Source: Minisyncoccota bacterium (lineage in GTDB: Bacteria; Patescibacteriota; Minisyncoccia; Phycocordibacterales; CAIJYI01). Taken from it: a DNA stretch of 64,000 bases. The notes below the pieces were generated by a model, which saw only the letters and a list, made by a program, of their open reading frames with translations, was not told the DNA's origin and searched no databases. Positions 1-61,322 of the stretch are shown here, one piece after another (the stretch's first letter is position 1; each line of letters begins with the position of its first letter). The translations under genes and the position numbers were made by a program. The stretch covers positions 14,422 to 78,421 of the forward strand of contig JALNYN010000001.1 of NCBI GenBank assembly GCA_023229825.1, written 5' to 3'.

Positions 1-20
1 CCACAACCCGTTCGTCCGTC

Positions 21-76
21 GCCGGGCCGGGTCTCCGACCCCGTCCGAAACGTTTCGTCCGTAACTCGTCCGTCGG
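21..76. repeat. Family-A REP-like hairpin repeat (core GTCCGAAACGTTTCG plus stem GGGTCTCCGACCCC); reverse orientation of the copy at 28222-28268
   Basis: Sequence gggtctccgaccccgtccgaaacgtttcgtccgt recurs at 467-506 and as reverse complement at 28222-28268. Confidence 0.6.
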
Positions 77-96
77 ATTTTTCGACACCCTCGCAG

Positions 97-387
97 ATGC
101 CCACACTTACGTCCGTTGGAAGTGGAAAAGTATTAACGGACACTTCAAACACCGTGGGGATAACTAATGCCACTCCAAAGAAGCTGGAAAAAGAATCCCG
201 AAAAGAAACCATCATCAGCCTTATTCGGTCGAAGGGTCCGGGAGGTGAACTCTCAATCAAAGACATAACCGCGCACTTCACCGACTGCGGAGAAAAAACA
301 ATTCAAAGGGAGCTCGCCGCCTTGGTCGCAGAAAAAGTCCTAAAGAAAACCGGCGACCGAAGATGGAGCAAGTACTCCCTCGTCTAA
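97..387 (+). CDS. small hypothetical protein, possible winged-helix DNA-binding C-terminus
   Basis: 96-aa ORF; C-terminal segment ISLIRSKGPGGELSIKDITAHF..IQRELAALV resembles an HTH; no clear RBS; flanked by repeats. Confidence 0.4.
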   Translation: MPTLTSVGSGKVLTDTSNTVGITNATPKKLEKESRKETIISLIRSKGPGGELSIKDITAHFTDCGEKTIQRELAALVAEKVLKKTGDRRWSKYSLV

Positions 388-400
388 AGGACACAACGAA

Positions 401-533
401 GTATCAGGGAAAAGTATCAGTATCAGGACCGTTAACGAAATGCACCACAAGACCATTTCGCCGTACGCGGGTCTCCGACCCCGTCCGAAACGTTTTGTCC
501 GTCGTCCCCGATACTGATACTCTCCCCTGATAC
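401..533. mobile_element. MITE-like composite element: 27-bp terminal inverted repeats (family E, GTATCAGGGAAAAGTATCAGTATCAGG at 401-427 / inverted at 507-533) enclosing a family-A core (467-506)
   Basis: Direct reading of inverted termini; family-E termini recur at 17267-17298 and 59877-59911. Confidence 0.6.
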
Positions 534-766
534 TCGTTCGTTCTCCTTCATTTCTCCTTAACAAAACATCCCAAAAATGCACCTAAAGACCATTTAAATG
601 CGTATTTATCAATAGGTATTTGAGGGCGTCGCGTTCATTAAAACATCTTGACTTTCAACCTCGAAAATGCGATACTCTATGGTACTGCATTATGGGTTAG
701 TGCGGGCAGCTTGCAGGGTGTTAATTCATCCCGCTAAGTGGAAAAATAAATTTTTGAAATCTGAAT

Positions 767-830
767 TCGTCGTCGTCCCTCCTCCCTCTCTTTAGAGGGG
801 AGGATTGAGGTGGGGTGTCGTCGTATCGTC
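767..830. repeat. Family-D hairpin (CCTCCCTCTCTTTAGAGGGGAGG)
   Basis: Related hairpin CCCTCCCCTCTGAAGAGAGGGAGGG at 59773-59810. Confidence 0.5.
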
Positions 831-940
831 GCCGGACGCGGGTGAGGAATGGGATGGGACCCATTCCGTAAAACCTTCTTCTAATATTTTGTGAGGAACG
901 AAACAAAATATTGAAAAGGTGTACTGCTCCTGTAAGGAGG
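822..940. repeat. Family-F ~115-bp repeat, copy 1 (internal hairpins GGAATGGG..CCCATTCC and AATATTTTGT..ACAAAATATT)
   Basis: Near-identical (few mismatches) to 12716-12833; both copies immediately followed by a family-A unit. Confidence 0.7.
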
Positions 941-1012
941 GCGACCCCGTCCGAAACGTTTCGTCGCCACCCGTCATTCCGGCCCACGAGCCGGAATCCA
1001 CGTCTCGTCGCG
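938..1012. repeat. Family-A unit (938-967) abutting family-B unit (972-1012; CGTCATTCCGG..CCGGAATCCACG)
   Basis: Family B recurs at 13513-13589, 17301-17336, 17556-17638, 55523-55551. Confidence 0.6.
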
Positions 1013-4500: not shown

Positions 4501-4944
4501 GTTACCAAATCAGCTGCAGTTACTCTCGCGAGAACGGGCGTCTCACTGGTAGATAGCAACAACAACACTATCGCCGGAACGTTCGCGACCTCGACAGCTA
4601 CGCAGGCTGGAACACTTATGTTTGACACGGATGCAACCACCGGATACATCTCATTCATCGCTACTGATGAGCAGCCGATCTCCACAACGGAGACCTACAG
4701 CTTGAAGGGTACTATCGCTGGAACCGCTTCCAATCTTTCGTTTGGAACCTACATCGATACGTCTTCTTCATACGCTGCGGCGGATGCGTACTTGGACATT
4801 GATAGTGCTGTGCATGATGGACTCGTTGACTTCATCTGGACTGATCGCTCAGCGAACAGCCACGACACCACCACCAATGACTGGAACACAGATTACAAGA
4901 TCAAGAATCTCTCGACTGACACCCAGACGATGACGGGTGCCTAA
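1594..4944 (+). CDS. giant cell-surface protein: N-terminal signal/TM, coiled coil, peptidoglycan-binding domain (PG_binding_1-like), then long Thr/Ser/Gly-rich Ig-like repeat region
   Basis: 1116-aa ORF; the motif LNLQKVLNSD...YFGAKTKAAVMKFQTKHGIAPVAGYVGPKTRAIL is typical of PG_binding_1; low-complexity beta-rich remainder. Confidence 0.85.
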   Translation: MSKYNKVIAGFVGFATAVTMSFGTASAATNEELQAQISALLAQITSLQAQLGTAQTGTGTTVGAYTFAMDLTLGSTGADVLNLQKVLNSDSATQVATTGAGAPGSESTYFGAKTKAAVMKFQTKHGIAPVAGYVGPKTRAILNTLGGTTTGGNTGGVVTPVGTDVSVALSFDNPAAGTVIAGQAIADLAHFTFSNPTGTEVKVTKLVFNRTGISNDSTLVNVYLFDGAKRVTDSASVASSKITFNDPTGIFTIPAGGMKTVALRADIVSTATGQIVGIALAEVTATATVGGAFPILGNNHSIATASMAVVDFSDTTTPSGTNVAVDPQTDYTMWQNTVSFTTRAVDMKGISFRQIGSVATADLGNFKLFIDGTQVGTTVASLDANGYVNFDLTATPKRLATGSHTIKLVGDIIGGSTRTFSFSLQQASDAVFVDSQLGQPILIKKAATTFSAEDSGSHLVNAGTLTITKKTDSPTGNITLTASNALLAKYEVKAAGEPIKVENLRVGIVQSTEGTYTDYSLRNGSLFILKADGTEEQVGNTASIAGNSSATVGYTQFNLGSSLVVYPGTPVILLVRADIYNDAGTTNATAIAATETLQVRILTGSNNWKRVNSLTYDSNTTQLANELTVTAGNFTVSASSAYANRAVVKPQTAYKLASFNVVSTETEPINLDTFTMTFTGSSVGVATGLSDVYVKYGTKTTSVKSTVASTTSSYSISEVLAPNTTMPVEVWGNLTSSLATDNTIITGVTISGTTANSATARSSSATGQTLTISAGSISAAVVSDSTLATKLLVGNTQPKVASFRFTALNDTYTITDIALKASTTGNAITSLVLKSAGMADKIVFLGTANGDDSVATSSGMTLSVPANNTTGTVVDVYLNLNDIGPNAGTTGSNVRVTIDTYKAQTSAGSTETKPTDIYGNLMYVYKSIPTITLVNLPSTTLTNGTKTLSKFTIAADAAGAIGWKQIVWQVTKSAAVTLARTGVSLVDSNNNTIAGTFATSTATQAGTLMFDTDATTGYISFIATDEQPISTTETYSLKGTIAGTASNLSFGTYIDTSSSYAAADAYLDIDSAVHDGLVDFIWTDRSANSHDTTTNDWNTDYKIKNLSTDTQTMTGA

Positions 4945-5077
4945 AAAACCATCTTGTGAGTTAGCAGAGCTAATTTTGGCAGCGTAAGTTGCCAGACCAG
5001 CGATACTAATTTGGTTCGCAAAACACCCCTTCGGATTCGTCCGTCGGGGTTTTTGCGTTGTGGTGGAGGAGGCGGTT

Positions 5078-5123
5078 CCCCTAGGGCGGTCCTCGGGAGG
5101 TTTCCCGAGGACCGCCCTAGGGG
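5078..5123. repeat. REP1 perfect palindrome (CCCCTAGGGCGGTCCTCGGGA-GGTT-TCCCGAGGACCGCCCTAGGGG) upstream of the RAYT gene
   Basis: Same family at 5826-5873 and 14401-14449. Confidence 0.8.
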
Positions 5124-5138
5124 AAAACGGAGCAATCG

Positions 5139-5155
5139 TGTATAATGCTTGAATG
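5139..5155 (+). promoter_or_regulatory. extended -10 (TGTATAAT) 6 nt upstream of the ATG: candidate leaderless promoter for the RAYT gene
   Basis: tgtataatgcttgaATG; no SD possible. Confidence 0.45.
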
Positions 5156-5848
5156 GAACGAAAATTTAATTTTAGCGTTGATGAGTACTATCATATTTAT
5201 AGCCGTGGAGTTGAGAAGCGTGAAATTTTTCTTGATAATGGAGATAAAGAAAGATTTTTACGTTTATTGTTCTTATCTAACTCAGGCAAACCATTTAATT
5301 TTAGAGAAGTTTCCGGAATTTCTTTTGAAAATATTTCTCGAGGAGAACCACGAACAGCCATAGGAGCTTTTTGCCTTATGCCCAATCATTTTCATCTACT
5401 ATTACGAGAAACCGAGGAGGGCGGAATAAGTGCATTTATCGGAAAACTTCTCACTGGCTATTCAATGTATTTTAATAAAAAATACAAACGAAAGGGTGTA
5501 GTTTTTGAAAGCCGTTTTCAGGCTCAGCACGTCGATAACGACAATTACCTCAAATATCTCTTTGCTTATATCCATCTCAATCCGGTAAAACTCATCGAAC
5601 CGGAATGGAAAGAGAAGGGAATCAAAGATCAGAAATTTGCCGAAGACTATCTGAATAAATATCGCTACAGTAGCTATGAAGATCATATGGGCACAGAAAG
5701 AGAAGAAGCCCTTATCCTCGACAAAGAGTCTTTCCCAGAATATTTCGAAAGATCCCGTGATTTCAAAGACTATGTAACGGATTGGCTCAATTATCGCGAC
5801 GAAGAGGAAGGCGGTGGCGACACTGTTCCCGAGGGCGGTCCTCGGTAA
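5153..5848 (+). CDS. REP-associated tyrosine transposase (RAYT / IS200-like Y1 HUH transposase)
   Basis: HUH motif NHFHLLL and the Y..YIHLNPVK motif, matching E. coli RayT (HMHCIW; YIYINPVKHG); flanked by REP1 palindromes; paralog at 61945-62655. Confidence 0.85.
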   Translation: MERKFNFSVDEYYHIYSRGVEKREIFLDNGDKERFLRLLFLSNSGKPFNFREVSGISFENISRGEPRTAIGAFCLMPNHFHLLLRETEEGGISAFIGKLLTGYSMYFNKKYKRKGVVFESRFQAQHVDNDNYLKYLFAYIHLNPVKLIEPEWKEKGIKDQKFAEDYLNKYRYSSYEDHMGTEREEALILDKESFPEYFERSRDFKDYVTDWLNYRDEEEGGGDTVPEGGPR

Positions 5849-5873
5849 AATTACCGAGGACCGCCCTCGGGAA
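5826..5873. repeat. REP1 palindrome overlapping the RAYT stop codon (TTCCCGAGGGCGGTCCTCGG-TAAAATTA-CCGAGGACCGCCCTCGGGAA)
   Basis: Direct reading; encodes the C-terminal PEGGPR and the stop. Confidence 0.8.
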
Positions 5874-5950
5874 CTCTAACCAACTTCACGTCATTTTTGC
5901 ATCTCTGTATAGTTTCTTTCCATTTTCTTTTTTGCTAGGATGGTGGCATC

Positions 5951-8900
5951 ATGAAAAAAATAATATTTCTCGCCACGGTGCTCTTTTTCGCACCTTCGTT
6001 CGTTTTTGCTGGAACTCCGGTCTGGGGTACTTTAAATTCCGATACCGTCTGGACGGCGGAAAGCGGTCCGTACCTTGTAGACTTCGCGATAGTCCCGGAA
6101 GGAGTAACACTTACAGTGGAAGAAGGAACCGTAGTTAAATTCACCGGACAGCGTTCAATGCTTGAAGTTTCCGGAAACCTTGTCGTTTCAGGGACTGAAT
6201 TGAGCCCCGTTGTTTTTACCTCCATAAATGACGATTCTGTCGGCGGCGATACCGGCACGGGAGCGAATGAGTGGGGAAACATTCTGATAAAGAACGGAGG
6301 AGTTGCGGAGATCGATCACACGATCGTTCGCTATGGCGGATGGACTGGATGGCTTTCTTCCGCCGCTCCGTCCAACATTTGGAACGACGGGGGAAACCTC
6401 ACCCTAACAAACTCGAAGATCAGCAATGCATGGACAGGCATAACGCATTCAGCGGGAAATACCGCGCTCACGGAAAACATATTCACGGAAAACCATATGG
6501 GAATTTCCGCGGGCGGAACGGGAAACGTCCGTTTCGATCATAATAATTTTTTTAATAATACCGGCAATGTGGCTTGGTTCGACCTCACTAACGGCGTCTC
6601 CCTTGCCCATTCGGATAATACCGCATGGGGAGGAACTCCGGGATTGGTTCTCGCAGGCGAGGCCGGCGCAGATTATGTTTTTGAGAAAGACGGAGCGCCA
6701 TACGTCATCGATCACTTCACGGTTCCCGCGGGAAAGACAGTAACATCGCGGCAGGGAACGGCATTTAAAATATTGAATCCCGTCAGCGAGATAAATATTT
6801 CCGGAACGTGGAACGCCGAAGGGACTTCGGATGAACCCGTTTACTTTACTTCCATTAAAGATGATACCGTTCTGGGAGATACCAACGGCGACGCCGATGC
6901 CACCAGCCCGGCTAAGAAAGATTGGGAAGGTATCATCATTTTACAAGATGGCAAAGCAAACTTCGATCATTCCGTTTTCCGCTATGGAGGATACAACGGC
7001 TGGCTGCAAAGCACTTATTCATCCAACATATCAAACAACGGAGGAGTTCTTATTATCTCCAATTCAGAAATTTCGCACGCCCCTATCGGGGTTAATCATG
7101 TTTTAGGGAATACCTCAATTTACGATAGCAATTTATCTGAAAATATTCAGGGAATAAATGCAATGGGAAAAGGAGTTATCGAAATCAAAAGGAATATTTT
7201 TGCAAACACAAGCTATGCGTGTTCTCTTAAATTATCAGAACTTTTGTTAACGAACGCCGGCAACAAAGTTCTTGGAAATGGATTCCGCGGTTTTAATATT
7301 GAAGGTACATTATCAACCAACCAAACATTAGCTAAAGATGTTCCATATATTGTTTCTACCATTACCATTCCTGCCGGAAAAATGCTCACGGTGCTTCCCG
7401 GAGCGGTAATTAAAATGAAGACTGCTTATGGCAGAATTACAGTTGATGGCGAGATTCAGGTCCTTGGAACAAAAGATGATCCGATATATTTTACATCAAT
7501 AAAGGACGACGAAGTCTACGGCGATACGAACGGCGACGGGAATGTTTCTTTTCCGCAACCCGGCAACTGGTCTGCGGTCGTCGTGCATCCGGGAGGAGCC
7601 GCAAACTTCGACCATGCGATCATCAAATACGGCGGATATTATTATTACGGTGATTCAATTCTCTACAATGACGGTGGAACCCTTTCCGTAAAGAACTCGC
7701 AAATCTCTTTCTCTCCCAGTTACGGAATTTATCACCGAAGCGGCTCGACCACCGTGAATTACAGCACGATACGAAACAACGGTTTCGGAGTATTCAATGC
7801 GGGATCCGAAAGTATCGACGCGACAAACAATTTCTGGGGCACCGCCGCCGGACCAAATCACAACGGTTTGCCGATCGAAGCGATTTTGAACGACAAGGTT
7901 TCGGATCAAGTAAATTATGCTCCGTGGCTTGATTATGATCCAATGGTAACGCTTCCGACATCAATAACGCTTACCAACGGCGGCGAAACGGAAAACGACG
8001 ATTTGCAAGATGGAAAAGGAGTGGCGGATAAAACTCAGTTTACGTTTTCTGTTGTTGCATCGGAAAATCTAGTGGACATAAAACTTGTAACCGATTCATC
8101 GGACGTCGGCATCAATCCGGGTCAATTCTTTTTGTACGCTTCAGGAACCGAAGGCGTTTACTCTCGCGCTCTTACCTTTCCGAAGGGACACTATCGCTAT
8201 CATTTTGAAGCGGGAGACGGAAACGGCGGCGTATATCGTTACCCGGAAGCAACCGAACTTGAATTTACAACCGGCTATTCAAACGTGGCGTTTTTGCCGG
8301 GGATCGAGGCATCGCGGCTGTACATAAATGGATATAAACAATGGGAGCCGCTCGGCGACAATGATGCCGAAGATCTTTTGATGAATAGCAACGGAAAAAG
8401 CGTAAAAGACAATATTTACACCAAAGATGTGATAAATAATGCTTACCTGCCGATAAAAGGGAATGTGTACCAGTCGTTTATTGAATCGATGAACGAATTA
8501 AAAAGCAGTCATATTATTACCGATTGGAAACCTCTCGCCTATGACTGGCGGTTGTCTTTTGGTGATGTTTTGAATAACGGGCAAATAATGAATGACGGAA
8601 TAAACTATACGCGAGAAATTTCTCCGCTTGATACGCCGAATATCATCGGCGAGATACATCGCCTTGCCGAAAGTTCCGACACGGGAAAAGTTACGATTGT
8701 TACGCATTCCATGGGAGGTCTCCTCGCAAAAAAACTCGCCATAAAACTCGGGGCGGATGCGCCGAAACTGTTGGATCAAATGATATTCGTCGCCTCTCCG
8801 CAGGCGGGGACGCCTCAAGCGATCGGCGCGCTTCTTCACGGTGCGGATGTCGCACTTCCACTGACCTCTTTGGATTACGGCATTTCTCCGAAAGAAGGAA

Positions 8901-10530: not shown

Positions 10531-10938
10531 ATGACAAAAAAAAACATTGTGTTGTTTAGTGCATTAGTAGGAACGATTACGTTTTTCTTACTTATCTTTT
10601 CGAGTGAAATCGGATTGTGCCCAAGAAATATCGGTACTTGTTCGCAAAGTTATGATGCAACTGCAACAAACTTTTTCTTGTTTTTACCAATACTTTTCTT
10701 CTCCCTCATCACCTACAAACTTCGCGAAGAAACATTTCGTGCATGGCTTCATTTTGCGTATTGGTGGGTTCCGTTATCAATGTTTCTTACTCTGATAACT
10801 CCTGAGAGCCGCGGCGGCGGATTCGGACCACAAATATCATGGGGAAAAGAAGACACCGCTTTTGTGTTTTCGGGTTTGTTCGCCATCATCTCCCTCATCC
10901 TTATCATTTACAAATCCATAAAGTTAAGAGGGAAGTGA
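10531..10938 (+). CDS. small multi-TM membrane protein, C-terminus ...ISLILIIYKSIKLRGK (paralog family 1 of 3)
   Basis: Shares FAYWW(V/L)P and an identical C-terminal 14 aa with 11083-11472 and 46141-46572. Confidence 0.7.
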   Translation: MTKKNIVLFSALVGTITFFLLIFSSEIGLCPRNIGTCSQSYDATATNFFLFLPILFFSLITYKLREETFRAWLHFAYWWVPLSMFLTLITPESRGGGFGPQISWGKEDTAFVFSGLFAIISLILIIYKSIKLRGK

Positions 10939-11082
10939 TTGAAATTACAACATATATTTTAGAAAACAATCGTACCTGGACAATCGCGAAATTCCAAAAG
11001 AAAAACTTGCTGACAAAAGATGAAGCGGACGAGTTGATAAAAATGCTTGGTGAGATTATGAGTAAGGTGGTAAAATAGGGGT

Positions 11083-11472
11083 ATGAAGAATAAAACTCTA
11101 ATTGTGATATTGTTTATATCGTTAATTTTATTGGCAGGTACATTTTTAGTTTGTCCCACCCCAACCGATGTTTGTTTGAGATATGACGAACTTTCCGTTT
11201 TTCTGATTCTTTTTTCTGCCCCGGTATTCCTCCTGTCATTAATTCTCCTTTTTCTCCGAGAAGAAATTTTTCGTTCTTGGAAACATTTCGCTTATTGGTG
11301 GCTCCCGATTTCCGCTTTCTTCATTATGTTAGCACCATCAACTGATCGCGGAAGCTTTGATTTTGGTATGGGATTCGATAGGGAGGCGGTAACTTGGTTT
11401 TTTGCGGTCTTATTTTTCCTTATCTCCCTCATCCTCATCATCTACAAATCGATAAAACTGCGCGGAAAATAA
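11083..11472 (+). CDS. small multi-TM membrane protein, paralog 2 (same C-terminal IYKSIKLRGK tail)
   Basis: Tandem paralog of 10531-10938. Confidence 0.7.
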   Translation: MKNKTLIVILFISLILLAGTFLVCPTPTDVCLRYDELSVFLILFSAPVFLLSLILLFLREEIFRSWKHFAYWWLPISAFFIMLAPSTDRGSFDFGMGFDREAVTWFFAVLFFLISLILIIYKSIKLRGK

Positions 11473-11497
11473 TCTTATCACTTCATATTTAACCATC

Positions 11498-12715: not shown

Positions 12716-12895
12716 ATATCCGTCGCCGGACGGGGTGAGGAATGGGTAGGGACCCATTCCGTAAAACCTTCTTCTAATATTTTGTGAGGTACGAAACAAA
12801 ATATTGAAAAGGTGTACTGCTCCTGTAGGGAGGGTAACCCCGCTCCAAACGTTTCGGACTGGGGTACAACCCCAGTCCGGCGGACGACGGAGCAA
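12716..12895. repeat. Family-F repeat copy 2 (12716-12833) followed by a family-A unit (12834-12895)
   Basis: Near-identical to 822-967. Confidence 0.7.
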
Positions 12896-13512: not shown

Positions 13513-13589
13513 TCGTCATCCCGGGCAACGACCCGGGATCCACGGTGAAATCGCCGGACGTGGATTCCGGGTCGCGGCCCGGAATGACG
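13513..13589. repeat. Family-B inverted pair (CGTCATCCCGGGCAACGACCCGGGATCCACGG / CCGGACGTGGATTCCGGGTCGCGGCCCGGAATGACG)
   Basis: Direct reading; in the adk-map spacer. Confidence 0.6.
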
Positions 13590-14400: not shown

Positions 14401-14449
14401 GTCCCCTAGGGCGGTCCTCGGTATTTTGCCGAGGACCGCCCTAGGGGAC
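14401..14449. repeat. REP1 palindrome copy 3, followed by a T-run: doubles as the map terminator
   Basis: GTCCCCTAGGGCGGTCCTCGG-TATTTTG-CCGAGGACCGCCCTAGGGGAC then tttttg. Confidence 0.8.
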
Positions 14450-17266: not shown

Positions 17267-17336
17267 GTATCAGGAAAAAGTATCAGTATCAGGGACGACA
17301 AACGTCATTCCGGCCAGCGAGCCGGAATCCACGTCG
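17267..17336. repeat. Family-E terminus (17267-17298) fused to a family-B unit (17301-17336)
   Basis: GGTATCAGGAAAAAGTATCAGTATCAGGGACGAC + CGTCATTCCGGCCAGCGAGCCGGAATCCACG. Confidence 0.6.
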
Positions 17337-17555: not shown

Positions 17556-17638
17556 CTCGTCATTCCGGACAGGGATCCGGAATCCACGGCGAAACAACTA
17601 CGAACGTGGATTCTGAATCAAGTTCAGAATGACGGAAT
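17556..17638. repeat. Family-B inverted pair
   Basis: CGTCATTCCGGACAGGGATCCGGAATCCACGG ... CGTGGATTCTGAATCAAGTTCAGAATGACGG. Confidence 0.55.
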
Positions 17639-23903: not shown

Positions 23904-25265
23904 ATGAAAGCGAAACTTACATTTGCCGGAGGAACGGGCGGTCCGACGGGGGCCAATTTTTTGTTTGAAACATCGGATAAAAAAATACTCATCGACTGCG
24001 GTCTGACACAAGGAGACGAATCAGCGGAAGATCTGAATCGCGAAATGTTCCCATTCGATCCCGGGGCGATCGATATTCTTTTTGTCACCCATGCCCATAT
24101 TGATCATATCGGAAGAATTCCATTTCTTATAAAGAACGGATTTCGCGGAAAGATCTATTCCACTCCGCCGACTCGGGATCTCGCAGAGCCGATGCTTGAT
24201 GATACGCTGTCGCTCATGATCCACGAGGAGAGGAAAAAAGGAACGGAGCCGCTCTATGATGCGGTAGATATACGGCAAGCGCTTTCGCTTTGGACGGGAA
24301 TAGAATACCGAAAGGAAATTCCGGTTTCTGACGATCTCTCGGTCGTTTTCCATGATGCCGGTCATGTGCTCGGATCGGCAATGATCGAAGTTCGATATGG
24401 AAAAAAGAAAATGCTTTTTACCGGAGATCTGGGTAATTCTCCCTCATCGATACTTCGCGATACCGAATATGTCCCCGATATTGATTATGTGCTGATGGAG
24501 AGCGTGTATGGGGATCGCGAGCATGAACACAGAGATGAAAGGAGGGATCTGCTTGAAGATGTTGTAAAAGAATCGGTAAAAAAGAAAGGGGTTTTACTGA
24601 TCCCCGTTTTTTCTCTCGAAAGAACGCAGGATATTTTATTTGAGATCAATGAACTGGTGGAAAGCGGAAAAATTCCCGCCGTGCCGGTGTTTCTTGATTC
24701 TCCGCTCGGTATCAAGATAACGGAAATTTATAAGAAGAACAAAAAATATTTCAACGCAAGCGCGCAGGCGATCATTCAGGGAGGAGATGACATTTTTCAA
24801 TTTCCGAAACTTCATTTCACTGCGGATGTCGAGGATTCCAAAGCTATTCGCGGCGTTCATCCTCCAAAGATCATTTTGGCGGGTTCCGGCATGTCGAACG
24901 GAGGACGAATATTGCATCATGAAAAAGAGTATTTATCCGACCCGAAAACTACGCTGCTCTTCGTGGGTTATCAGGCGGTCGGGACCCCCGGAAGACTTTT
25001 GGAGAATGGAGAAAAGACCGTCCGTATCATGGGCGAAGAAATAAAAGTGCGCGCACACACCGCAACGATCCACGGCTACTCGGCTCATCGAGATATGAAT
25101 GGCTTGTTCGATTTTGTCGATCAAATGAGCGATACAGTGCAAAAAGTTTTCGTAGTGATGGGCGAACCGAAAGCGGCGACGTTTTTATCGCAAAGGATAC
25201 ATGATTATCTCGGTTTGGACGCGGTGGTGCCGAGATTGGGGGAAAGTATTGAGCTGGAATTTTAA
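23904..25265 (+). CDS. MBL-fold metallo-hydrolase with beta-CASP domain (RNase J / CPSF73-like RNA-processing nuclease)
   Basis: HAHIDHIG metal-binding motif, beta-CASP region, COG1236-like length. Confidence 0.8.
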   Translation: MKAKLTFAGGTGGPTGANFLFETSDKKILIDCGLTQGDESAEDLNREMFPFDPGAIDILFVTHAHIDHIGRIPFLIKNGFRGKIYSTPPTRDLAEPMLDDTLSLMIHEERKKGTEPLYDAVDIRQALSLWTGIEYRKEIPVSDDLSVVFHDAGHVLGSAMIEVRYGKKKMLFTGDLGNSPSSILRDTEYVPDIDYVLMESVYGDREHEHRDERRDLLEDVVKESVKKKGVLLIPVFSLERTQDILFEINELVESGKIPAVPVFLDSPLGIKITEIYKKNKKYFNASAQAIIQGGDDIFQFPKLHFTADVEDSKAIRGVHPPKIILAGSGMSNGGRILHHEKEYLSDPKTTLLFVGYQAVGTPGRLLENGEKTVRIMGEEIKVRAHTATIHGYSAHRDMNGLFDFVDQMSDTVQKVFVVMGEPKAATFLSQRIHDYLGLDAVVPRLGESIELEF

Positions 25266-25269
25266 ACGA

Positions 25270-25335
25270 GGTTTTAGGTGCTAGGTTTTAGGTGTTAGCT
25301 TGACGACGACAAGTAGTAAAATTAAAAGCTAACGG
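25270..25335. repeat. Family-C element, left arm (TTAGG heptamer-like repeats + ACGACGAC core + AAAAGCTAACGG)
   Basis: ggttttaggtgctaggttttaggtgttagcttgacgacgac...aaaagctaacgg; the right arm at 25758-25788 is its inverted complement. Confidence 0.7.
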
Positions 25336-25342
25336 CCGACAA

Positions 25343-25744
25343 TTGAATATTATGATAGAAACAAAACCAATTCATTCATATAGGGATTTGACTGTGTGGC
25401 AGCGCTCCATGCAATTAGTTCTTGTCATTTATCAAATTACAGAAAAGTTTCCCAAGGAAGAAATTTATGGCCTCACATCTCAAATGAGAAGATCCGCCGT
25501 GTCGATACCGTCGAATATTGCGGAAGGACGATTTAGAAATACAAGAAAAGATTTCGCACAGTTTCTGCGAATTGCGTATGGTTCTGGCGCTGAGCTTGAT
25601 ACACAGATAGAAATAGCAAGCCAATTACAAAAAACAAAAGACCTTGATTATCAAGAAGCGAGACAGTTACTTACTGAAGTATTAAAAATGCTAAACGCGC
25701 TGATCGCAAAAATATCCAAACCTGTTTCCGGTAGAAAACTTTGA
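25343..25744 (+). CDS. four-helix-bundle protein (23S rRNA-intervening-sequence protein family, PF05635)
   Basis: Hallmark TVWQRSMQLV..IY.IT.KFPKEE.YGLTSQMRRSAVSIPSNIAEG; sits between the inverted arms of a family-C element. Confidence 0.85.
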   Translation: MNIMIETKPIHSYRDLTVWQRSMQLVLVIYQITEKFPKEEIYGLTSQMRRSAVSIPSNIAEGRFRNTRKDFAQFLRIAYGSGAELDTQIEIASQLQKTKDLDYQEARQLLTEVLKMLNALIAKISKPVSGRKL

Positions 25745-25757
25745 TAGTTGCGTTAAA

Positions 25758-25788
25758 CTAACACCTAAAACCTAACAGCTAAAACCTC
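25758..25788. repeat. Family-C element, right arm (CTAACACCTAAAACCTAACAGCTAAAACC)
   Basis: Inverted complement of the left arm. Confidence 0.7.
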
Positions 25789-26429: not shown

Positions 26430-27866
26430 ATGAAAATAACGCATGACAAAACGATGCAAAAAGGCGGAGCAGACATCGCTCTTTTGGTCGCTTTTTGTCT
26501 GTTTTTTCTTTCTGCGCTCGGGTCATTCATCTATTTTTCGCTTTTCGGCGATCCTCCGATAAATGGAGACAAGATACTGGAGCAAACAATGACGGCATCT
26601 TCCGCGGTAAAATCGTACACGGCAGAGATTTTTATTCAGAACGAAGGCGTTGCTTCTTCGAGCGCGGTAGTAAATGGAACGGTCAGAGTCGATACCGCCA
26701 CGGGGGCTCACAATGGTTTATTTTCCTTTTCTCTCTCGCGTAATAATACTAATCCGAGACTGGAAGTGGAAACGCTAACGTTTCCCGAAGCATCGTACGC
26801 GAAGTTCATCCTGAATGACAAGATGAATAAAAGTCTTGCGGCGTATCCGCCGGACTGGGTAATAATAACGGCTTCTGAGGTCGGTCCGGAACAATATGCC
26901 GTTTTACAGCGATCGCTCGCAGTTGCAGATGTTCTTGAGTTGTTTCGAAAAGGCGGCAAATATCTCGCTATAGAGGGAACAGCCGAAAAACAGATCGGCG
27001 GAGTCGAACCGCAAATACATTTTGTCCTTCGTCCCTCAAAGATCGAATCAGATCGTCCTTCGGAAGTATCTGAAAATTTTGATACGCTCCTTCGGAAAGG
27101 CGAGGTTAATGTGTGGGTCGCCGCAAAGGATAAGAGCGTGCGCGAGGTGAGATATTCCGTCAATGGTTATTCGATAACCATGAGGATAAAAAATACATCC
27201 GCGCGCCCAAATATTGAGAGGCCGGAAGGTTCGATCACTCTCACTGAATGGAAGACAAAACAGTTTTCCGCATTCGCCCTGAAAGACCCCATATCGGAAA
27301 TTTTTATCGGCTCCTACGGCGCCATAAAAAAAGAATATCTGGAAGCGCTCAGTTCCGCGATAAAAAAACAAACGGGGATCAAAGCAACGGTTCTGATCCC
27401 GGGGTCGGAACTTCCGCAGACAATGCCGCTGTATAACGCGGAACGAAAGCAGTTCGATGCGGATACCGCTTATAACAGTGCGAAAGCGGCATCGCAGAAA
27501 TATGGGGCAAAAACGCGCTTCATTTATGTGTTGGACGTAAATATGTATTCTTCATTGCGGCCAAAACAGGTATCAGCATGGTTCATCGATGAATTGGGGT
27601 CGAATACGGTGCTCATGTCACTGTACGGACTTCGCAGAATATCCGACACGGATCCGAGTCCAGCCGATCAACCGCTCGTTATTTCGCGGGCTCAAAAGAT
27701 CGCTCTTCACGCTCTCGGAACGAGCGTCGGTTTCGGCCTCTCGCCATCAACCGAAAACCCGACCTGTCTTTCATATAAGACGGATTCTCTCGCGGAACTC
27801 GATAAGCAAGGAACCGCGTACTGCGCACCGGAGAGTTCGACCACTAAAGCGTTCTTCAAAAAATAG
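26430..27866 (+). CDS. hypothetical membrane-anchored protein (N-terminal TM, large extracytoplasmic domain)
   Basis: 478-aa ORF, coding-like composition, no recognised motif. Confidence 0.6.
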   Translation: MKITHDKTMQKGGADIALLVAFCLFFLSALGSFIYFSLFGDPPINGDKILEQTMTASSAVKSYTAEIFIQNEGVASSSAVVNGTVRVDTATGAHNGLFSFSLSRNNTNPRLEVETLTFPEASYAKFILNDKMNKSLAAYPPDWVIITASEVGPEQYAVLQRSLAVADVLELFRKGGKYLAIEGTAEKQIGGVEPQIHFVLRPSKIESDRPSEVSENFDTLLRKGEVNVWVAAKDKSVREVRYSVNGYSITMRIKNTSARPNIERPEGSITLTEWKTKQFSAFALKDPISEIFIGSYGAIKKEYLEALSSAIKKQTGIKATVLIPGSELPQTMPLYNAERKQFDADTAYNSAKAASQKYGAKTRFIYVLDVNMYSSLRPKQVSAWFIDELGSNTVLMSLYGLRRISDTDPSPADQPLVISRAQKIALHALGTSVGFGLSPSTENPTCLSYKTDSLAELDKQGTAYCAPESSTTKAFFKK

Positions 27867-27950
27867 ATACTAATATACGAATGAGTACCAATATACGAAT
27901 GGATACGAATACGACCGGCAACGAAGAAGAGATGGAACATTGCTCGGATC

Positions 27951-28070
27951 GCCGGACCGGGGTTGTACTCCGGTCCGAAACGTTTGGACGATTCACTGGT
28001 TTTTTCTATTAATACAAATTCGAAGATGAATTCCAAACGTCATGAACGGGAGTACAACTCCCGTCCGGCG
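27951..28070. repeat. Family-A inverted pair (CCGGGGTTGTACTCCGG-TCCGAAACGTTTGG ... CCAAACGTCATGAACGGGAGTACAACTCCCGTCCGGCG)
   Basis: Conserved loop GTACAAC with different stem sequences in different copies. Confidence 0.6.
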
Positions 28071-28221
28071 AAGAATCTGCGAGTATTTTCCAACGATTGT
28101 GACGGTCAAAAATATAATACCATTTCTTGACGGTAAAAGTGAGAAAATAGACGCCGGCATTTAATTCTTTTGATATTCTCGGGGAGGGCATGAGCGAATG
28201 ATAACTGAGTTCTGTGAAAAG

Positions 28222-28268
28222 TTCAAACGTTTCGGACGGGGTCGGAGACCCCCGTCCGGCAGCCCGAC
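28222..28268. repeat. Family-A unit (CAAACGTTTCGGACGGGGTCGGAGACCCCCGTCCGGC)
   Basis: Reverse complement of the copies at 21-76 and 467-506. Confidence 0.6.
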
Positions 28269-28305: not shown

Positions 28306-28340
28306 AAAAATCCTCCGATGTTGTCGGAGGATTTTTTTTT
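28306..28340 (-). terminator. rho-independent (bidirectional) terminator of the infC-rpmI-rplT operon
   Basis: AAAAATCCTCCGATGTTGTCGGAGGATTTTTTTTT. Confidence 0.8.
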
Positions 28341-28924: not shown

Positions 28925-29015
28925 AGTAATTTAGGTTTTAGGTGTTAGGTGTTAGGTGTTAGGTTACGACGATCGTCGCCGGAAACTAAAAGCTAACACC
29001 TAAAACCTAACACCT
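28925..29015. repeat. Family-C element, intact compact copy (TTAGG arm - ACGACGATCGTCG core - CCTAA arm) in the rpmI-infC spacer
   Basis: ggttttaggtgttaggtgttaggtgttaggttacgacgatcgtcgccggaaactaaaagctaacacctaaaacctaacacc. Confidence 0.75.
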
Positions 29016-39097: not shown

Positions 39098-39143
39098 TTT
39101 TCTACAAGGTTAGTCCTTGTACAAGGACTAACCTTGTAGAAAA
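39098..39143. promoter_or_regulatory. perfect 46-bp palindrome upstream of ald
   Basis: TTTCTACAAGGTTAGTCCTTGT|ACAAGGACTAACCTTGTAGAAA. Confidence 0.5.
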
Positions 39144-46140: not shown

Positions 46141-46572
46141 ATGAACTACAAAAAACAAATTAAAATGGCATTTATCATTGCCTTCCTATTTTATCTTTTT
46201 CCGGTGTTCTCTCTTTATCGAGAAATGTTTCCTGACGGCGAATGTGAATTAAACCATAACGGCAATATATTACGATGTCTCTTTTTTGTGCTTTTGCCTG
46301 GCCTAGTTGCTTTATGGATGGTTGTGCTGATGTTTTTTCTCGTCGCGCTTTATTTTCTCAAAGAAGCCATCTTTCTCTCTTGGCGGAAGTTCGCGGTATG
46401 GTATCTCCCAATTGTTCTTGCTTTCACTTTCCTCATCGGTGGCGGATCGAACGGTTTCAATCCGGGCTACGGTTTTGATACCGAATCACTCACTTTCTTT
46501 TTCTCCGGTTTATTCGCATTAGTTTCGGTCATTCTCATTATCTATAAATCCATAAAATTAAGAGGAAAATAA
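46141..46572 (+). CDS. small membrane protein, paralog 3 (C-terminal ..ILIIYKSIKLRGK)
   Basis: Immediately downstream of lipase paralog 2, the same arrangement as 10531/11083 after lipase 1. Confidence 0.7.
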   Translation: MNYKKQIKMAFIIAFLFYLFPVFSLYREMFPDGECELNHNGNILRCLFFVLLPGLVALWMVVLMFFLVALYFLKEAIFLSWRKFAVWYLPIVLAFTFLIGGGSNGFNPGYGFDTESLTFFFSGLFALVSVILIIYKSIKLRGK

Positions 46573-46581
46573 TTGTTACCT

Positions 46582-46619
46582 CAACATAAAATGCCGGCTT
46601 ATGCGGGCATTTTATGTTG
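46582..46619 (+). terminator. rho-independent terminator
   Basis: CAACATAAAATGCCGGCTTATGCGGGCATTTTATGTTG. Confidence 0.75.
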
Positions 46620-54007: not shown

Positions 54008-54073
54008 CATCTCCACAAATCTAAAAAACAGTCCGCTTGTTGGCGGACTGTTTTTTAGATTTGTGGAGATGGG
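54008..54073. terminator. long inverted repeat / bidirectional terminator abutting the tmRNA 3' end (a 29-bp stem that includes an inverted copy of the tmRNA 3'-terminal 15 nt)
   Basis: CATCTCCACAAATCTAAAAAACAGTCCGC-TTGTT-GGCGGACTGTTTTTTAGATTTGTGGAGATG. Confidence 0.6.
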
Positions 54074-54449
54074 GGGAATTGAACCCCCGTGCAAAAAGGA
54101 ACTCTTGGTGCCGGTACAAACATAGTTTATTTTTTTTGGTTTAAACCTTATAAGTTTGAAATAAACAAAATCTTATAAGCGTCGAGCTTCCTTTGTTTTG
54201 AAAATGTGCCGAAGCGCTCACATTTTCTATCCTGATGATATTACACCTTTTCTTTCTTATCAGGACTCAAAAAGAAAAGATGCCGTTTACGCTAAAGCGT
54301 AGCTCGGAGCGAAGTACGGAGATAAGACCGCACCTGCTTTTTTAGATAAGTTTGCACTTATGCAGTTTCTCGCGCATTTTAACGGGTGAGCGAGAATATC
54401 CGGTTTGAGCATTCAAGAGAGCGGCTTATTGTCTAGGCCGATCATCCCC
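54062..54449 (-). ncRNA. ssrA: tmRNA (ssrA)
   Basis: 5' GGGGAUG pairs with 3' CAUCUCC, including a G3:U70 wobble; T-arm GGGGGTTCAATTCCCCC; tag ORF ending ...YALA-TAA (stop at 54287-54289); adjacent to smpB. Confidence 0.7.
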
Positions 54450-54540
54450 ATGGGTTATCAAGGTGCTTATATAGTATACCGCAAAACTCACATATTGACA
54501 ATAGCTATAAATAATGTTATTTACAGCCTGAATTTGGCGC

Positions 54541-54990
54541 TCATCTTGCTTTCCATTCTCTGGCTATGTCGCGCTCGGTATCGCGTTTTTTGATGGTTTC
54601 TCGTTTGTCGTATTTTTTCTTTCCGCGCACTATGGCGATCCCTACTTTTATCTTCTTTCCTTTGCCGAACATCGAAATAGGGATGATCGTCAATCCTTTT
54701 TGCCCTTCGGCGCGGGCTATTTGGGCGATCTCTTTTTTTGTCAGAAGGAGTTTTCTGGTGCGATCGGTCTGGTAAGCCGACACGGCGTTGTTGGGCTGGT
54801 AGAGCGGAATCGATGCGCCGACCAAGAACGCTTCGCCGCCTCGAACGAGCACGCGGGCGCCTTCAAGAGAACCGTGAGAAGATTTTACGGATTTTACTTC
54901 GTGCCCGAGCAGTTCAATGCCTGCATCGAATTTCTCGATCATTTCGTAATCGAAATGCGCTTTTTTGTTATGGACAAACGTCGGCATGGG
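54541..54990 (-). CDS. smpB: SsrA-binding protein SmpB
   Basis: AHFDYEMIEKFDAGIELLGHEVKS...; start at MPTFVH (the long ORF extension is not conserved). Confidence 0.9.
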   Translation of the reverse strand, partial: PMPTFVHNKKAHFDYEMIEKFDAGIELLGHEVKSVKSSHGSLEGARVLVRGGEAFLVGASIPLYQPNNAVSAYQTDRTRKLLLTKKEIAQIARAEGQKGLTIIPISMFGKGKKIKVGIAIVRGKKKYDKRETIKKRDTERDIAREWKAR

Positions 54991-55119
54991 TACAGTATAG
55001 CAAAAGCGAGCGGTCTTGACAAACGGCAAATTGCAAGCTAAACTCAAACGGAATTTCGTCGTGTTTTGGCGGCGGATGAAATTTTGTTTTTTCACAATTT
55101 TTTTCACAGGAGGAACGTC

Positions 55120-55431
55120 ATGACTATATATATGGGACCGGAGGGCGATATTTTTGGATTTGATGGAAAGAAATCTGCCAAGGACGACAAAAATGAAACA
55201 TTTGTACATGGACGTTATAGAACAAAGAAAATCCAAGCGCTCAATTTTTTAGAGGGTGCGAGCGACGAGGCTTATTATACGAAAGAAGCATTGTCTACCA
55301 TTAGGAAAGCGGGAGTGCCGGGTTTTACCGGTGCCAATATGGAAAAGATCCTTTCTTTATATGAGGAGATCAATCTTCGTTTGCGCCGCGAGATGGTGTT
55401 GATGAAAAGGAGTATTGTCGAAGAAGAATAA
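55120..55431 (+). CDS. hypothetical protein
   Basis: SD aggagg 6 nt upstream of the ATG at 55120; terminator at 55451-55482. Confidence 0.5.
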   Translation: MTIYMGPEGDIFGFDGKKSAKDDKNETFVHGRYRTKKIQALNFLEGASDEAYYTKEALSTIRKAGVPGFTGANMEKILSLYEEINLRLRREMVLMKRSIVEEE

Positions 55432-55522
55432 CGGCGATCGTTTGACTAGTGAAGCTCCGTACTGAAGTGCGGAGTTTTTTTGTGGAGGGGCAAAGGTCCA
55501 TAATGTCGGACGCTCGCCATAT

Positions 55523-55551
55523 GGATTCAGGATCGCGGTCCGGAATGACGA
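55523..55551. repeat. Family-B unit (reverse orientation)
   Basis: TGGATTCAGGATCGCGGTCCGGAATGACG. Confidence 0.5.
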
Positions 55552-55663
55552 CGATAACGGGTTTCGGTGCTTGACAAAAGACCATGAGATGAGCTAAATT
55601 CGAGAGAGATTCCGTGTTTTTGAAACGGATGATCTGGATGTTTGAAAAGGAGGCAGAGAAGCT

Positions 55664-56026
55664 ATGAAAGTTATGCATGGTCAAGACCCGGCTTATAAAC
55701 AACGGCAAACCGAGAGAGAAATTGAACAGCGCAGAGAATTTGTTCGTTTGGTGATGGAGGCGATGCCGTTCACGGCGCATTATGGCCACACTCATGACGA
55801 TGTGCCGAATTTTATGGAATTGGCTTTTGGGGAGAAATTCGAATTGGTTCACATGTCACCGCATGAAGCGGATAAAAATTCCCCGTACCTCACTATGGTG
55901 CTGCAGAAGTTTTGTGTGAGTGCAAGACTTGTTAAGACCCGTGTTGAGACCAAAGATGTTTTCCGCGTTCATTACTTCGTCGTACCGAATCAATGTTACC
56001 TCGATAGTCTTCGTGGAGTTTGTTGA
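55664..56026 (+). CDS. hypothetical protein
   Basis: 120-aa ORF with RBS aaggaggcagagaagctATG. Confidence 0.5.
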   Translation: MKVMHGQDPAYKQRQTEREIEQRREFVRLVMEAMPFTAHYGHTHDDVPNFMELAFGEKFELVHMSPHEADKNSPYLTMVLQKFCVSARLVKTRVETKDVFRVHYFVVPNQCYLDSLRGVC

Positions 56027-56096
56027 TCATTCATATTTCATTCATATTGAAATTTTGAAATGAGGTCAGTCAAATTATGGTTTAAATGGAGGCGAC

Positions 56097-56282
56097 ATGG
56101 GCGGTCTCGATTTCGTTGAAAAAGTTTTAGAGTTGACCCGAGCAGGGGTGAGCGTCACGGAAAAGGATTACCTCTCTGGGCGGATGGTTGACGCGAAGTA
56201 TGCTGAAGCGCTCGAGATCTTGTGCGATGTTCATGTTGTGACCGATTCCGAACTCGGTTCGGGTCGTGAAATGGATAAATGA
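56097..56282 (+). CDS. hypothetical small protein
   Basis: 61-aa ORF with RBS (ggaggcgacATG); terminator at 56288-56317. Confidence 0.4.
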   Translation: MGGLDFVEKVLELTRAGVSVTEKDYLSGRMVDAKYAEALEILCDVHVVTDSELGSGREMDK

Positions 56283-56394
56283 GATCAAGGCTCCGCTATT
56301 TGGCGGAGCTTTTTTGTATCTATTTATGTTGTTAGCGTGAAGGGAATGTACTGACAGACTTGCCTCTTATTCCTCGTCGTGTTATCATATCACG

Positions 56395-58350: not shown

Positions 58351-58470
58351 CAAAAACAAAAACATCCCGATAAAAGTTCGGGATGTTTTTTATCGCGGCG
58401 GATCATTTTTGACAGGATAAATAAAAACCTGTATTCTTGAAACGGTTTTGTTGTTTGTAAGGAGAAAGCA

Positions 58471-58827
58471 GTGGAAGTAAAAACATCCAAACCGCATATT
58501 GTTTATATATGGGAATTGGCCCTGAATGTTGATCAGAAGTTATATTACAACGTATACGTACGACATGCCCTTGATCCCATATTGGAACGAGGCGAGTCTT
58601 TTCCGGTTCTCATCGGAGTAACCGACAGCATTGAGACAGATAAAGTATATCCGCTCAATCACCCGAATTTTTCCGAACTGGGCACAAGCCATTTTCCTTA
58701 TGATCCTGAAGTGAGTACGGAAGGATACTTGCGTCACTCCGCCGTTTTTCCAATACCGGTCTCTGTCATAAAGGAAGTCTTGGAATTTTTGAAGCAGCGC
58801 ACGCCGAAAGAAAGGAGGTTTTTATGA
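58471..58827 (+). CDS. hypothetical protein
   Basis: RBS aaggagaaagcagtgg..; 4-nt overlap with the next ORF. Confidence 0.5.
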   Translation: MEVKTSKPHIVYIWELALNVDQKLYYNVYVRHALDPILERGESFPVLIGVTDSIETDKVYPLNHPNFSELGTSHFPYDPEVSTEGYLRHSAVFPIPVSVIKEVLEFLKQRTPKERRFL

Positions 58828-59156
58828 GCGATCTTCATCCTCGCTATTCTCACGCCGGTTTTTCTCTGGAATACCGAGAGATAGGCTGCGTTTGGGGTTG
58901 GTTTACTCGGGAATGTATTCCCATGGCTCCGTTTTTTGTCACGTATGTGAAAGACGGGCTCGTATTTGTCATTCCTTACGGCGTATTCTGCGGCGGTCGC
59001 GCCTGCGTTTATACCGATGCCTATTGCGTCGGACAAAAAACCGCGACAGGAAAAATTTCCGAAGCGTACCAATGGGAAGATCGGATGGAGCATCATGGAT
59101 TTACTCCAGAATTGATAAAAAAGATAAAAGATTTTCTCAGGACCGAAAATAGATGA
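58824..59156 (+). CDS. hypothetical Cys-containing small protein
   Basis: Translationally coupled (ATGA overlap); terminator at 59163-59198. Confidence 0.5.
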   Translation: MSDLHPRYSHAGFSLEYREIGCVWGWFTRECIPMAPFFVTYVKDGLVFVIPYGVFCGGRACVYTDAYCVGQKTATGKISEAYQWEDRMEHHGFTPELIKKIKDFLRTENR

Positions 59157-59198
59157 AAGTACCAAGCTCCGCACACAATGCGGAGCTTGTTTTTTTTG

Positions 59199-59308
59199 TC
59201 GTCGTCGGACGGGATTTGTATCCCGTTCGAAACGCTTGAAGAAAACGCTGAACGCAGTAATTTCAAACGTTTCGAACGAAGGTACAACCTTCGTCCGGCG
59301 GACGAGGG
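59199..59308. repeat. Family-A inverted pair (GGACGGGATTTGTATCCCGTTCGAAACGCTTG ... CAAACGTTTCGAACGAAGGTACAACCTTCGTCCGGCGG)
   Basis: Loop TACAA(A) conserved; stems differ from other copies but remain complementary. Confidence 0.6.
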
Positions 59309-59403
59309 CGGTTTCAAACACAGACTATTGACACATTGTCAACAAATTGGTAAGTTGGTGCCAGATTGTGATTTTTGGCAATCATTACGAAATTTAGGAG
59401 AGT

Positions 59404-61320: not shown

Positions 61321-61322
61321 AA

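Follow-up and report, generated by a model that had tools for sequence, protein, structure and literature searches.

The window, that is, the whole 64-kb stretch of DNA analysed here, lies within a 134-kb contig of a metagenome-assembled genome (MAG) of Candidatus Paceibacterota, from the candidate phyla radiation (CPR)/Patescibacteria. Its gene content is ordinary housekeeping (adk, map, ndk, infC, clpP, ftsH, smpB, the tmRNA gene, tuf and rpsJ), and it carries in addition at least six families of short repeats and two genes resembling those of REP-associated tyrosine transposases (RAYTs; REP, repetitive extragenic palindromic). CPR bacteria have very small and gene-dense genomes, and a limited literature search turned up no description of REP repeats in this radiation. 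An assembly artefact was excluded as the source of the repeats, since an independent European Nucleotide Archive contig was 100% identical to the window over 17 kb and window proteins were recovered in the NCBI MAG. Exact-sequence matching of eight window proteins placed all of them in the collection: seven (through a member of the same cluster for IF-3) as NCBI proteins assigned to this taxon, and ribosomal protein S10 through JGI/IMG and ENA entries only. The repeats had been noticed in an earlier examination of the letters alone (the sequence-only reading), and the present analysis dealt above all with family A, a hairpin element whose stem changes from copy to copy while its pairing is kept, and with its relation to the other families and to the RAYT genes.

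Read with its core first, family A has the form YCAAACGTTTCGRAC-N5-TACAA-N5'-GTCCGGCG, and on the hairpin-first strand it reads (CGTC)GC-CGGAC-N5-TTGTA-N5'-GTCCG-AAACGTTT. Its stem begins at the CGG of the core and reaches to the CCG that follows the second N5 block, giving 10 bp in total around a loop of 5 nt, and the core itself belongs to a palindrome (CGAAACGTTTCG). With up to two mismatches, the core was found at 7 sites of the window versus 0.27 expected (0/100 shuffles); a full-text literature search with it returned unrelated antisense oligonucleotides only. A covariance model built from external copies and run on the window with cmsearch retrieved eight full copies and a truncated one (946-969), in both orientations, and a half-site of the palindromic core was present at ~12833-12848, within the second copy of family F. 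The sequence-only reading had counted family A at least 10 times in both orientations; the orientations stood, the count came down to the figures just given, and the four stems that it had quoted were all present in the window.

Family A stems covary around a conserved loop

Covariation could not be judged from the nine window copies; the contigs of the metagenome were scanned with the core, the loop and the 3′ flank fixed and both N5 blocks free. The metagenome loci compared are designated by L numbers, and one of them, L204, belongs to the same genome and lies 8 kb upstream of the window. This stem-free scan recovered 91 unique family A copies at 82 loci. Watson-Crick pairs occupied 439 of the 455 stem cells in these copies, which presented 25 stem types, and the innermost position was always Watson-Crick paired, as T-A in 61 copies and as G-C in the other 30. 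In an alignment of 88 copies, 95.5% of the cells were paired versus 84.5% in column shuffles, and 75 double-changed cells were counted versus 20.8 expected, a value reached by none of 500 shuffles; when the 3′ partner was slid by one column, pairing collapsed to 39-63%.

The covariance model retrieved 172 family A copies in 566 kb, spread over many contigs. Among 70 unique cores, all 9-10 stem positions varied with compensation, the loop being TACAA in 54 and TGCAA in 8. Moreover, in 60 aligned copies lying outside the scan pattern the base of the stem also covaried (GGAC/GTCC, GGTT/AACC, GGTC/GACC, GGAA/TTCC and GGAG/CTCC), and the loop stayed TACAA or TGCAA. The earlier proposal that family A stems covary around a conserved loop was borne out on these 88-91 external copies, in which stem mismatches were not random. 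Covariation in family A was thus strongly confirmed, and it points to selection on structure: the sequence of the stem changes and its pairing is kept.

Doublets, dispersal and copies inside genes

Adjacent family A copies were predominantly arranged as inverted head-head doublets (39 of 44 pairs), with the cores inward and the GCCGGAC ends outward, and their start-to-start spacing fell into two classes, ~60 nt and ~82 nt. One arm usually carried a variant core, AAACGTCATGAAC, so that TTTCGRAC and CATGAAC cores with different stems faced each other; for example, the doublet at 27945-28075 combined a left-arm core AAACGTTTCGGAC with this variant in its right arm. In 32 unique doublets, an average of 4.75 of the 20 stem positions differed between the two arms, and each arm kept 9.1-9.3 of its 10 pairs. 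The arms differ and yet each remains paired, therefore selection acts on each hairpin and not on complementarity between the arms.

Doublet spacers were conserved within subfamilies, and one doublet, including its spacer, was found at two L164 loci with unrelated flanks. No target-site duplication was found at the doublet boundaries (CGCCGGAC...GTCCGGCG), where the flanks were likewise unrelated. These observations bear on the possibility that the composites are classical miniature inverted-repeat transposable elements (MITEs) that go back to an insertion sequence of the DDE type, the arms of family E or A serving as terminal inverted repeats. Inverted arms do enclose a short non-coding core, both at 400-534 and in the A doublets. 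However, besides the missing duplication, the arms form hetero-dimers that differ mutually while each folds on itself, single arms are common, and neither the window nor the loci contained a DDE transposase with matching ends, which makes this origin highly improbable. The sequence-only reading had called the composites MITE-like and compared them with BOX, RUP and Correia elements; the analogy with Correia-type elements held in its general direction, and the MITE label did not, because target-site duplication is lacking and each paired unit joins two different hairpins that fold independently. The closest kinds are REP elements, the bacterial interspersed mosaic elements (BIMEs) and the neisserial intergenic mosaic elements (NIMEs).

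Comparison of related genomes revealed that orthologous spacers differ in their repeat content. Orthologous doublets in L148 and L182 were distinguished by a compensatory change, GGTC/GACC versus GGAC/GTCC. The spacer 5′ of the DUF87 gene contained a RAYT-type palindrome in the window, and an A doublet plus a different palindrome in L131. Between the terminator and the tuf promoter of the window, a block of ~700 bp comprising an A doublet, a small open reading frame (ORF), D and E was absent from L205. It was also observed, when 54060-64000 was compared with L205, that identity was 97% over 59919-64000, 78% over ftsH and 67-80% farther upstream; this abrupt change suggests that related strains recombined recently at the tuf promoter.

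Near-identical family A hairpins, also as head-head doublets, were present in Methylobacter, including the isolate M. tundripaludum OWC-G53F, among the matches listed by a scan of genome contigs with the 14-base pattern CNAAACGTTTCGGAC; most of those listed were chance matches, and the use of the scan lay in showing the Methylobacter hairpins. High-GC metagenome loci with family A carried nif genes. The occurrence of family A in both Paceibacterota and Methylobacter means that the family spans two phyla.

Family A was also found inside genes. The copy at 15-63, which the sequence-only reading had missed, lies within a coding sequence. A conserved 313-aa protein is encoded by a gene that begins before the first letter of the window and ends at 387; the C-terminal winged-helix part of this protein corresponds to the ORF at 97-387, and the copy falls in its linker, where it encodes GRVSDPVRNVSSVTRP. 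In 688 homologues of the protein both domains were conserved and the linker was hypervariable, and the A-derived peptide was confined to six close homologues. A degenerate family A copy was similarly found in frame in the linker of FtsK, and both intragenic copies seen lie in disordered linkers. A count of ORF overlaps (58 of 150 family A copies inside ORFs of at least 90 aa) was set aside as unreliable, since GC-rich repeats make spurious ORFs, as in the window. Four homologues without the A-derived peptide (P0025, P0026, P0028 and P0029) presented another recurrent linker peptide, SSEGRTEVG (alignment columns ~215-290), which might stem from another repeat translated in frame, and the linker may be a repeated landing site.

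Nested modules and CGTC-tagged family B

The remaining families were combined with family A in several ways (Table 1). The two family E arms at 400-534, of 28 nt each and 89% complementary, enclose an A copy, in agreement with the earlier description of E as terminal inverted repeats around a family A core (401-533), and further E copies were found in L164, L154, L184 and L183. The composites A+B (938-1012), E+B (17267-17336) and D+E (59773-59911) were as that description had them, and the reuse of modules in different combinations was confirmed.

Family F had been described as occurring twice, each time fused to family A. Two copies, 93% identical, were indeed found, with a folding z of -6.4, but F sits inside the loop of an A hairpin rather than being fused to it. 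At their 5′ end both copies have CGTCGCCGGAC-GGGGT, at their 3′ end ACCCC-G(C)TCC-(G/A)AAACGTTTCG; these ends are A arms, and F therefore consists of family A hairpins with a ~100-nt module of three hairpins (the F core) in the loop. The truncated cmsearch match at 946-969 is the 3′ half of the A hairpin of F copy 1. The F core was also present in L204 (2240-2345), L194 (2050-2160) and L180 (2700-2815), with closing stems of unrelated and quite different sequence in L204 and L194 and none evident in L180. A second case of nesting was provided by a 36-nt two-hairpin insert placed exactly at TA^CAA of an A loop in L193, the L164 orthologue being without it; an identical insert occupied the same loop position in a different A copy of L174. 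This nesting of repeats would give rise to the apparent modular network.

The hairpins of the F core presented five compensatory pairs and several G-U pairs, the latter on the gene-sense strand only. Two readings of the F core are considered, a small element that inserts itself into the loops of hairpins and a structured RNA whose closing stem is free to vary; its four sequences are too few to decide between the two. The G-U pairs on the transcribed strand and the compensatory pairs are also in favour of a more general explanation, in which the hairpins of the window act in transcripts as terminators or small RNAs, as had been proposed from the sequence, or as 3′-end protectors. Most window copies are placed 3′ of genes, where the spacer is tandem or convergent, the stability of the hairpins is very high, and E. 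coli REPs have such secondary roles (summarised in PMC3733652). However, the orientation of family A showed no bias relative to the transcription of flanking genes (11 versus 18 in ++ contexts, 9 versus 9 in --), no U-tract follows the stem, and canonical T-run terminators adjoin A copies (~28310-28340, and 59163-59197, which the doublet at 59198-59305 directly follows). Copies inside coding linkers also argue against this explanation, and the conserved loop and 9-nt tail would be superfluous in a plain terminator. No Rfam family matched: with the Rfam covariance models, tmRNA alone passed the gathering threshold in the window, and 1-1600 gave only sub-threshold chance hairpin matches. The missing bias and the lack of an Rfam family point to the DNA level rather than the RNA level for family A; RNA action as its primary role is quite unlikely, and it may exist as a secondary, disfavoured use.

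Family B presented the layout CGTC, an 8-bp stem beginning with AT, a loop of 4-6 nt, the returning stem ending in AT, and CCA(CG). The window contained seven copies, four of them in two inverted pairs and three single (972, 17303 and 55520), so that the two pairs agree with the earlier statement that B usually occurs as inverted pairs and the word "usually" was generous; a further head-head dimer was found in L204 at 234-316. Among 24 distinct B hairpin bodies overall, the tag was CGTC in 22 and TGTC in 2, the stems were mostly of 8 bp and all began AT...AT, and the loops, of 4-6 nt, were slightly above the published range; the CCA tail, which was part of the search pattern, was conserved in all window copies. 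No transposase gene adjoined the B copies.

The superfamily of CGTC-tagged REPs, to which Neisseria dRS3 and Rickettsia RPE-4/6 belong, is defined by a CGTC (or TGTC/CCTC) tag, an 8-9 bp stem starting with A-T, a loop of 4-5 nt and a CCA tail, with predominance of head-head dimers and no associated transposase gene (Di Nocera, De Gregorio and Rocco 2013, PMC3733652). Judged by its sequence, family B is of this already known kind: the tag, the AT stem, the short loop, the CCA tail, the head-head dimers and the lack of an adjacent transposase are all shared, every defining sequence feature being present, and B is interleaved with other repeats as in the mosaic regions of Neisseria. Paceibacterota is not among the hosts given for CGTC-tagged REPs in that study. 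Moreover, an extended form of dRS3 termed NTS (CGTCATTCCCGCGMAVGCGGGAATCYRG) is bound and cut, as single-stranded DNA (ssDNA) only, by the 94-aa GIY-YIG nuclease SsnA; for cleavage the GTC 5′ of the palindrome is important, and for binding the C that follows, and Ssn genes across phyla are flanked by NTS-like motifs (Chenal et al. 2025, PMC11893778). This arrangement of the NTS/SRM hairpins is shared by family B, two metagenome copies being CGTCATTCCCGCG[AT]AGGCGGGAATCCA.

Other inverted repeats were observed around genes of the window and its surroundings. Low-complexity repeats of AGGTTTT/AGGTGTT units stand in inverted orientation (25255-25301 and 25751-25787) on either side of the gene at 25343-25744, whose product is a "23S rRNA intervening sequence protein" (four-helix bundle, PF05635); related long hairpins lie just 3′ of infC (28933-29015) and just 5′ of rpsJ (61316-61401), and L194 and L126 contain tandem versions. 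The small PDDEXK_3 gene of L204 (4556-4987) is similarly placed between inverted repeats of low complexity (4522-4570 and 4953-5005), which are ~90% identical to a ATACGAAT-rich stretch at 27862-27915 of the window. The tmRNA gene (54061-54449) has an unusually long predicted tag (ANLSKKAGAVLSPYFAPSYALA), and a perfect 29-bp inverted repeat (54008-54071) overlaps its 3′ end. Three small genes (10531-10938, 11083-11472 and 46141-46572) share a conserved 3′ end encoding a hydrophobic tail (10859-10954, 11393-11488 and 46493-46588), which indicates a small paralogous family of putative membrane-anchored proteins.

Table 1. Repeat copies and RAYT-like genes located in the 64-kb window
Feature	Position	Strand	Description
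Family A copy	15-63	-	Loop variant CGGAG; cmsearch 33.9 bits; inside linker of the gene for the 313-aa protein
Family E arm, left	400-427	+	GTATCAG-rich; palindrome enclosing A copy; inverted-repeat search
Family A copy	454-503	-	Between two family E arms; cmsearch 28.6 bits
Family E arm, right	507-534	-	Preceded by CGTCGTC; inverted-repeat search
Family D hairpin module	770-817	+	CCCTCCTCCCTCTC-TTTA-GAGGGGAGG plus GGTGGGG tail; 90% identical to 59764-59811, opposite strand
Family F copy 1	827-969	+	A arm (CGTCGCCGGAC-stem ... stem-GTCCGAAACGTTTCG); loop holds ~100-nt three-hairpin module (~838-940)
Family B copy	972-1002	+	CGTC / ATTCCGGC / loop / GCCGGAAT / CCA
RAYT-like Y1 transposase gene	5153-5848	+	Pfam Y1_Tnp; perfect palindromes 5076-5125 and 5825-5874
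Family F copy 2	12721-12856	+	A arm with same loop insert; shares palindromic core with next A copy
Family A copy	12839-12887	+	Stem TGGGG/CCCCA, loop TACAA; cmsearch 63 bits
Family B head-head dimer	13514-13589		CGTC tags outward
Family E arm then family B copy	17267-17333	+	
Family B head-head dimer	17558-17634		
Family A head-head doublet	27945-28075	-/+	Copies 27945-27993 (-) and 28027-28075 (+); start-to-start 82 nt; cmsearch, inverted repeat
Family A single copy	28217-28266	+	Stem GGGGTC, loop GGA variant; cmsearch 42.1 bits
Family B copy	55520-55550	-	One stem mismatch
Family A head-head doublet	59198-59305	-/+	Copies 59198-59245 (-) and 59257-59305 (+); start-to-start 59 nt; cmsearch
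Family D copy	59764-59811	-	
Family E arm	59888-59911	-	Preceded by CGTCGTC
Second RAYT-like gene	61945-62655	+	Flanked by AAGGACSGTCCTT palindromes at ~61895 and 62664, not family A

Candidate partner enzymes and the place of family A among REP elements

RAYTs had been proposed as enzymes acting on the repeats. RAYT genes were searched by tblastn and a custom hidden Markov model over all loci (~600 kb), and only four were found: two in the window (5153 and 61945), one in L164 and one in L139. All four were flanked by other perfect palindromes of their own and never by family A, which does not support A as a RAYT target. The first window gene is flanked by palindromes of family C, which are perfect and have 21-24-bp arms, with a third copy at 14401-14449. 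None of the genes bracketed by family A copies was a nuclease or a transposase.

Some further observations were made on the RAYT palindromes. A T-run follows the third C copy, which lies at the expected terminator position between map and the DUF87 gene, and exactly there L131 has a different perfect palindrome. An orphan perfect palindrome at 39098-39143 (ACAAGGTTAGTCCTTGT/ACAAGGACTAACCTTGT) is identical to those at 7579-7614 and 8309-8344 of L164; its cognate RAYT is not in the window, and the L164 RAYT placed between these two palindromes is 62% identical to a window RAYT. The start of the otherwise conserved S10 ribosomal-protein operon is interrupted (61408-62655; L205 5603-9494) by a RAYT gene accompanied by three small ORFs, which are placed between rpsJ and rplC.

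Considering these findings together, the window probably contains a mosaic of REP-type hairpin elements that act at the DNA level, would be recognised as single strands by an enzyme acting in trans, and spread as doublets. Each module is a short hairpin of DNA in which unpaired parts are conserved. By analogy with the RAYT and Ssn precedents, the hairpins of families A and B would extrude when DNA becomes single-stranded during replication, transcription or DNA uptake, and a sequence- and structure-specific enzyme would bind the conserved stem base, loop and tail. This enzyme might be an HUH Y1 enzyme of the RAYT type or a small GIY-YIG nuclease of the Ssn type; Ssn is the documented partner of B-type repeats in other bacteria, and is accordingly a candidate for B. 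Copies would persist or spread only while the hairpin forms, with the stem drifting and its pairing kept. The units would spread mainly as head-to-head doublets together with their spacer, and copies would build up between genes, within hairpin loops already in place and sometimes, in frame, in disordered linkers.

Several observations weigh against this reading. The covariation among repeat copies partly mirrors subfamily ancestry and not independent events. The asymmetry between G.T and A.C mismatches was tried as an indicator of the functional strand: 4/4 window mismatches looked like one-strand wobbles, but the signal cancelled on the 70 unique cores, with A.C at pair 19-39 and T.G at pair 17-41, and since no strand is singled out, the single-strand argument rests on analogy. 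The ~700-bp difference with L205 could equally be a deletion, and no clean filled-versus-empty site of family A transposition was found among the compared loci. The strict SRM pattern HGTCWYN(0-2)YYVSBRHN(0-5)WNVSBRGN(0-2)RNCYNB matched one of the seven window B copies (the left unit at 13514; 0.23 expected), the others being off by one or two positions. The four RAYT genes are flanked by other palindromes, and the sequence searched yielded no partner enzyme for either A or B. A scan of window ORFs, the Pfam hits of the genes called in L204 and a Pfam scan of 55 small ORFs detected no GIY-YIG gene, whether in the ~72 kb of this genome covered (the window plus 8.4 kb 5′ of it) or in the B-bearing loci; regular-expression searches, which were possibly too strict, gave nothing either.

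That no GIY-YIG gene was detected in these sequences counts also against the alternative that B, and possibly A, are host-serving DNA sites recognised by an Ssn-like nuclease or another DNA-binding protein, which would police incoming ssDNA or organise the chromosome, host selection keeping the copies. The NTS architecture of B, with the GTC tag that matters for cleavage and the C that matters for binding, is in line with such a role, as are the abundance of NTS-type repeats in Ssn-encoding genomes and the conservation of the family A sequence across two phyla, which is hard to explain by drift alone. However, copy positions differ between related genomes, and nested and intragenic copies resemble insertion debris, so that host-serving sites are regarded as an unlikely explanation.

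The repeats can be compared with known systems of REP-type elements, among which family A is a new family of a known kind, B being already known. Like CGTC-tagged REPs, family A forms head-head dimers, has a 5-nt loop and carries a CGTC/TGTC tag in about half of its low-GC copies (among 98 of these, GACG follows GTCCGGC in 36 and GACA in 10). Unlike them, it has a 10-bp stem starting with CGGAC and not AT, a conserved TTGTA loop and a palindromic tail of 9-12 nt (AAACGTTT) in place of CCA; its tag lies 2 nt from the stem and is almost absent from the high-GC, Methylococcaceae-like copies (1/41). Its stem, loop and long tail are unlike those of the four published CGTC families. With the REPIN-RAYT system (Bertels and Rainey 2011, PMC3116915; Nunvar 2010; Ton-Hoang 2012) it shares inverted hairpin doublets, conserved spacing, high copy number, a mostly intergenic location, the lack of target duplication and RAYT genes in the same genome; in contrast, no GTAG was present at either end in the 88-copy alignment, no RAYT gene is flanked by A, and the doublet arms are systematically non-identical.

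Similarly, the window repeats resemble the BIMEs of E. coli and the NIMEs of Neisseria in comprising several families in variable order in intergenic regions, and REP dimers are known to sit within longer palindromes in mosaics of this type (PMC3733652); they differ from them in their sequences and in having small modules placed precisely in hairpin loops (the F core and the 36-nt insert). As in Rickettsia palindromic elements (RPEs) and intragenic REPs, in-frame palindromic repeats are tolerated in variable regions, but the intragenic copies of family A are two only, lie in disordered linkers and belong to a different sequence family.

A bolder proposal, which is tentative and unlikely, is that family A represents a third REP superfamily beside GTAG and CGTC, with a TTGTA loop, a CGGAC/GTCCG base and an AACGTT-containing tail, served by an ssDNA-processing enzyme, and that its loops are specific landing sites (TTG^TA) for still smaller elements. 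If so, the occurrence of the family in both Paceibacterota and Methylococcaceae may be due to an exchange of the enzyme together with its repeat, either among lineages living side by side or between a symbiont and its host, and the landing sites would stack repeats inside one another within a streamlined genome.

Current understanding is not overturned by these results; a known repeat class is extended to a new phylum, and a new family is added to it. With ~170 copies and every stem position compensated, family A constitutes an unusually clean natural experiment in hairpin covariation, and its fixed loop and tail make it a precise bait for finding the enzyme that would bind it, just as the link of family B to Ssn ssDNA nucleases suggests a testable partner. 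Moreover, the loop-targeted nesting and the in-frame linker copies illustrate how repeats reshape even minimal genomes.

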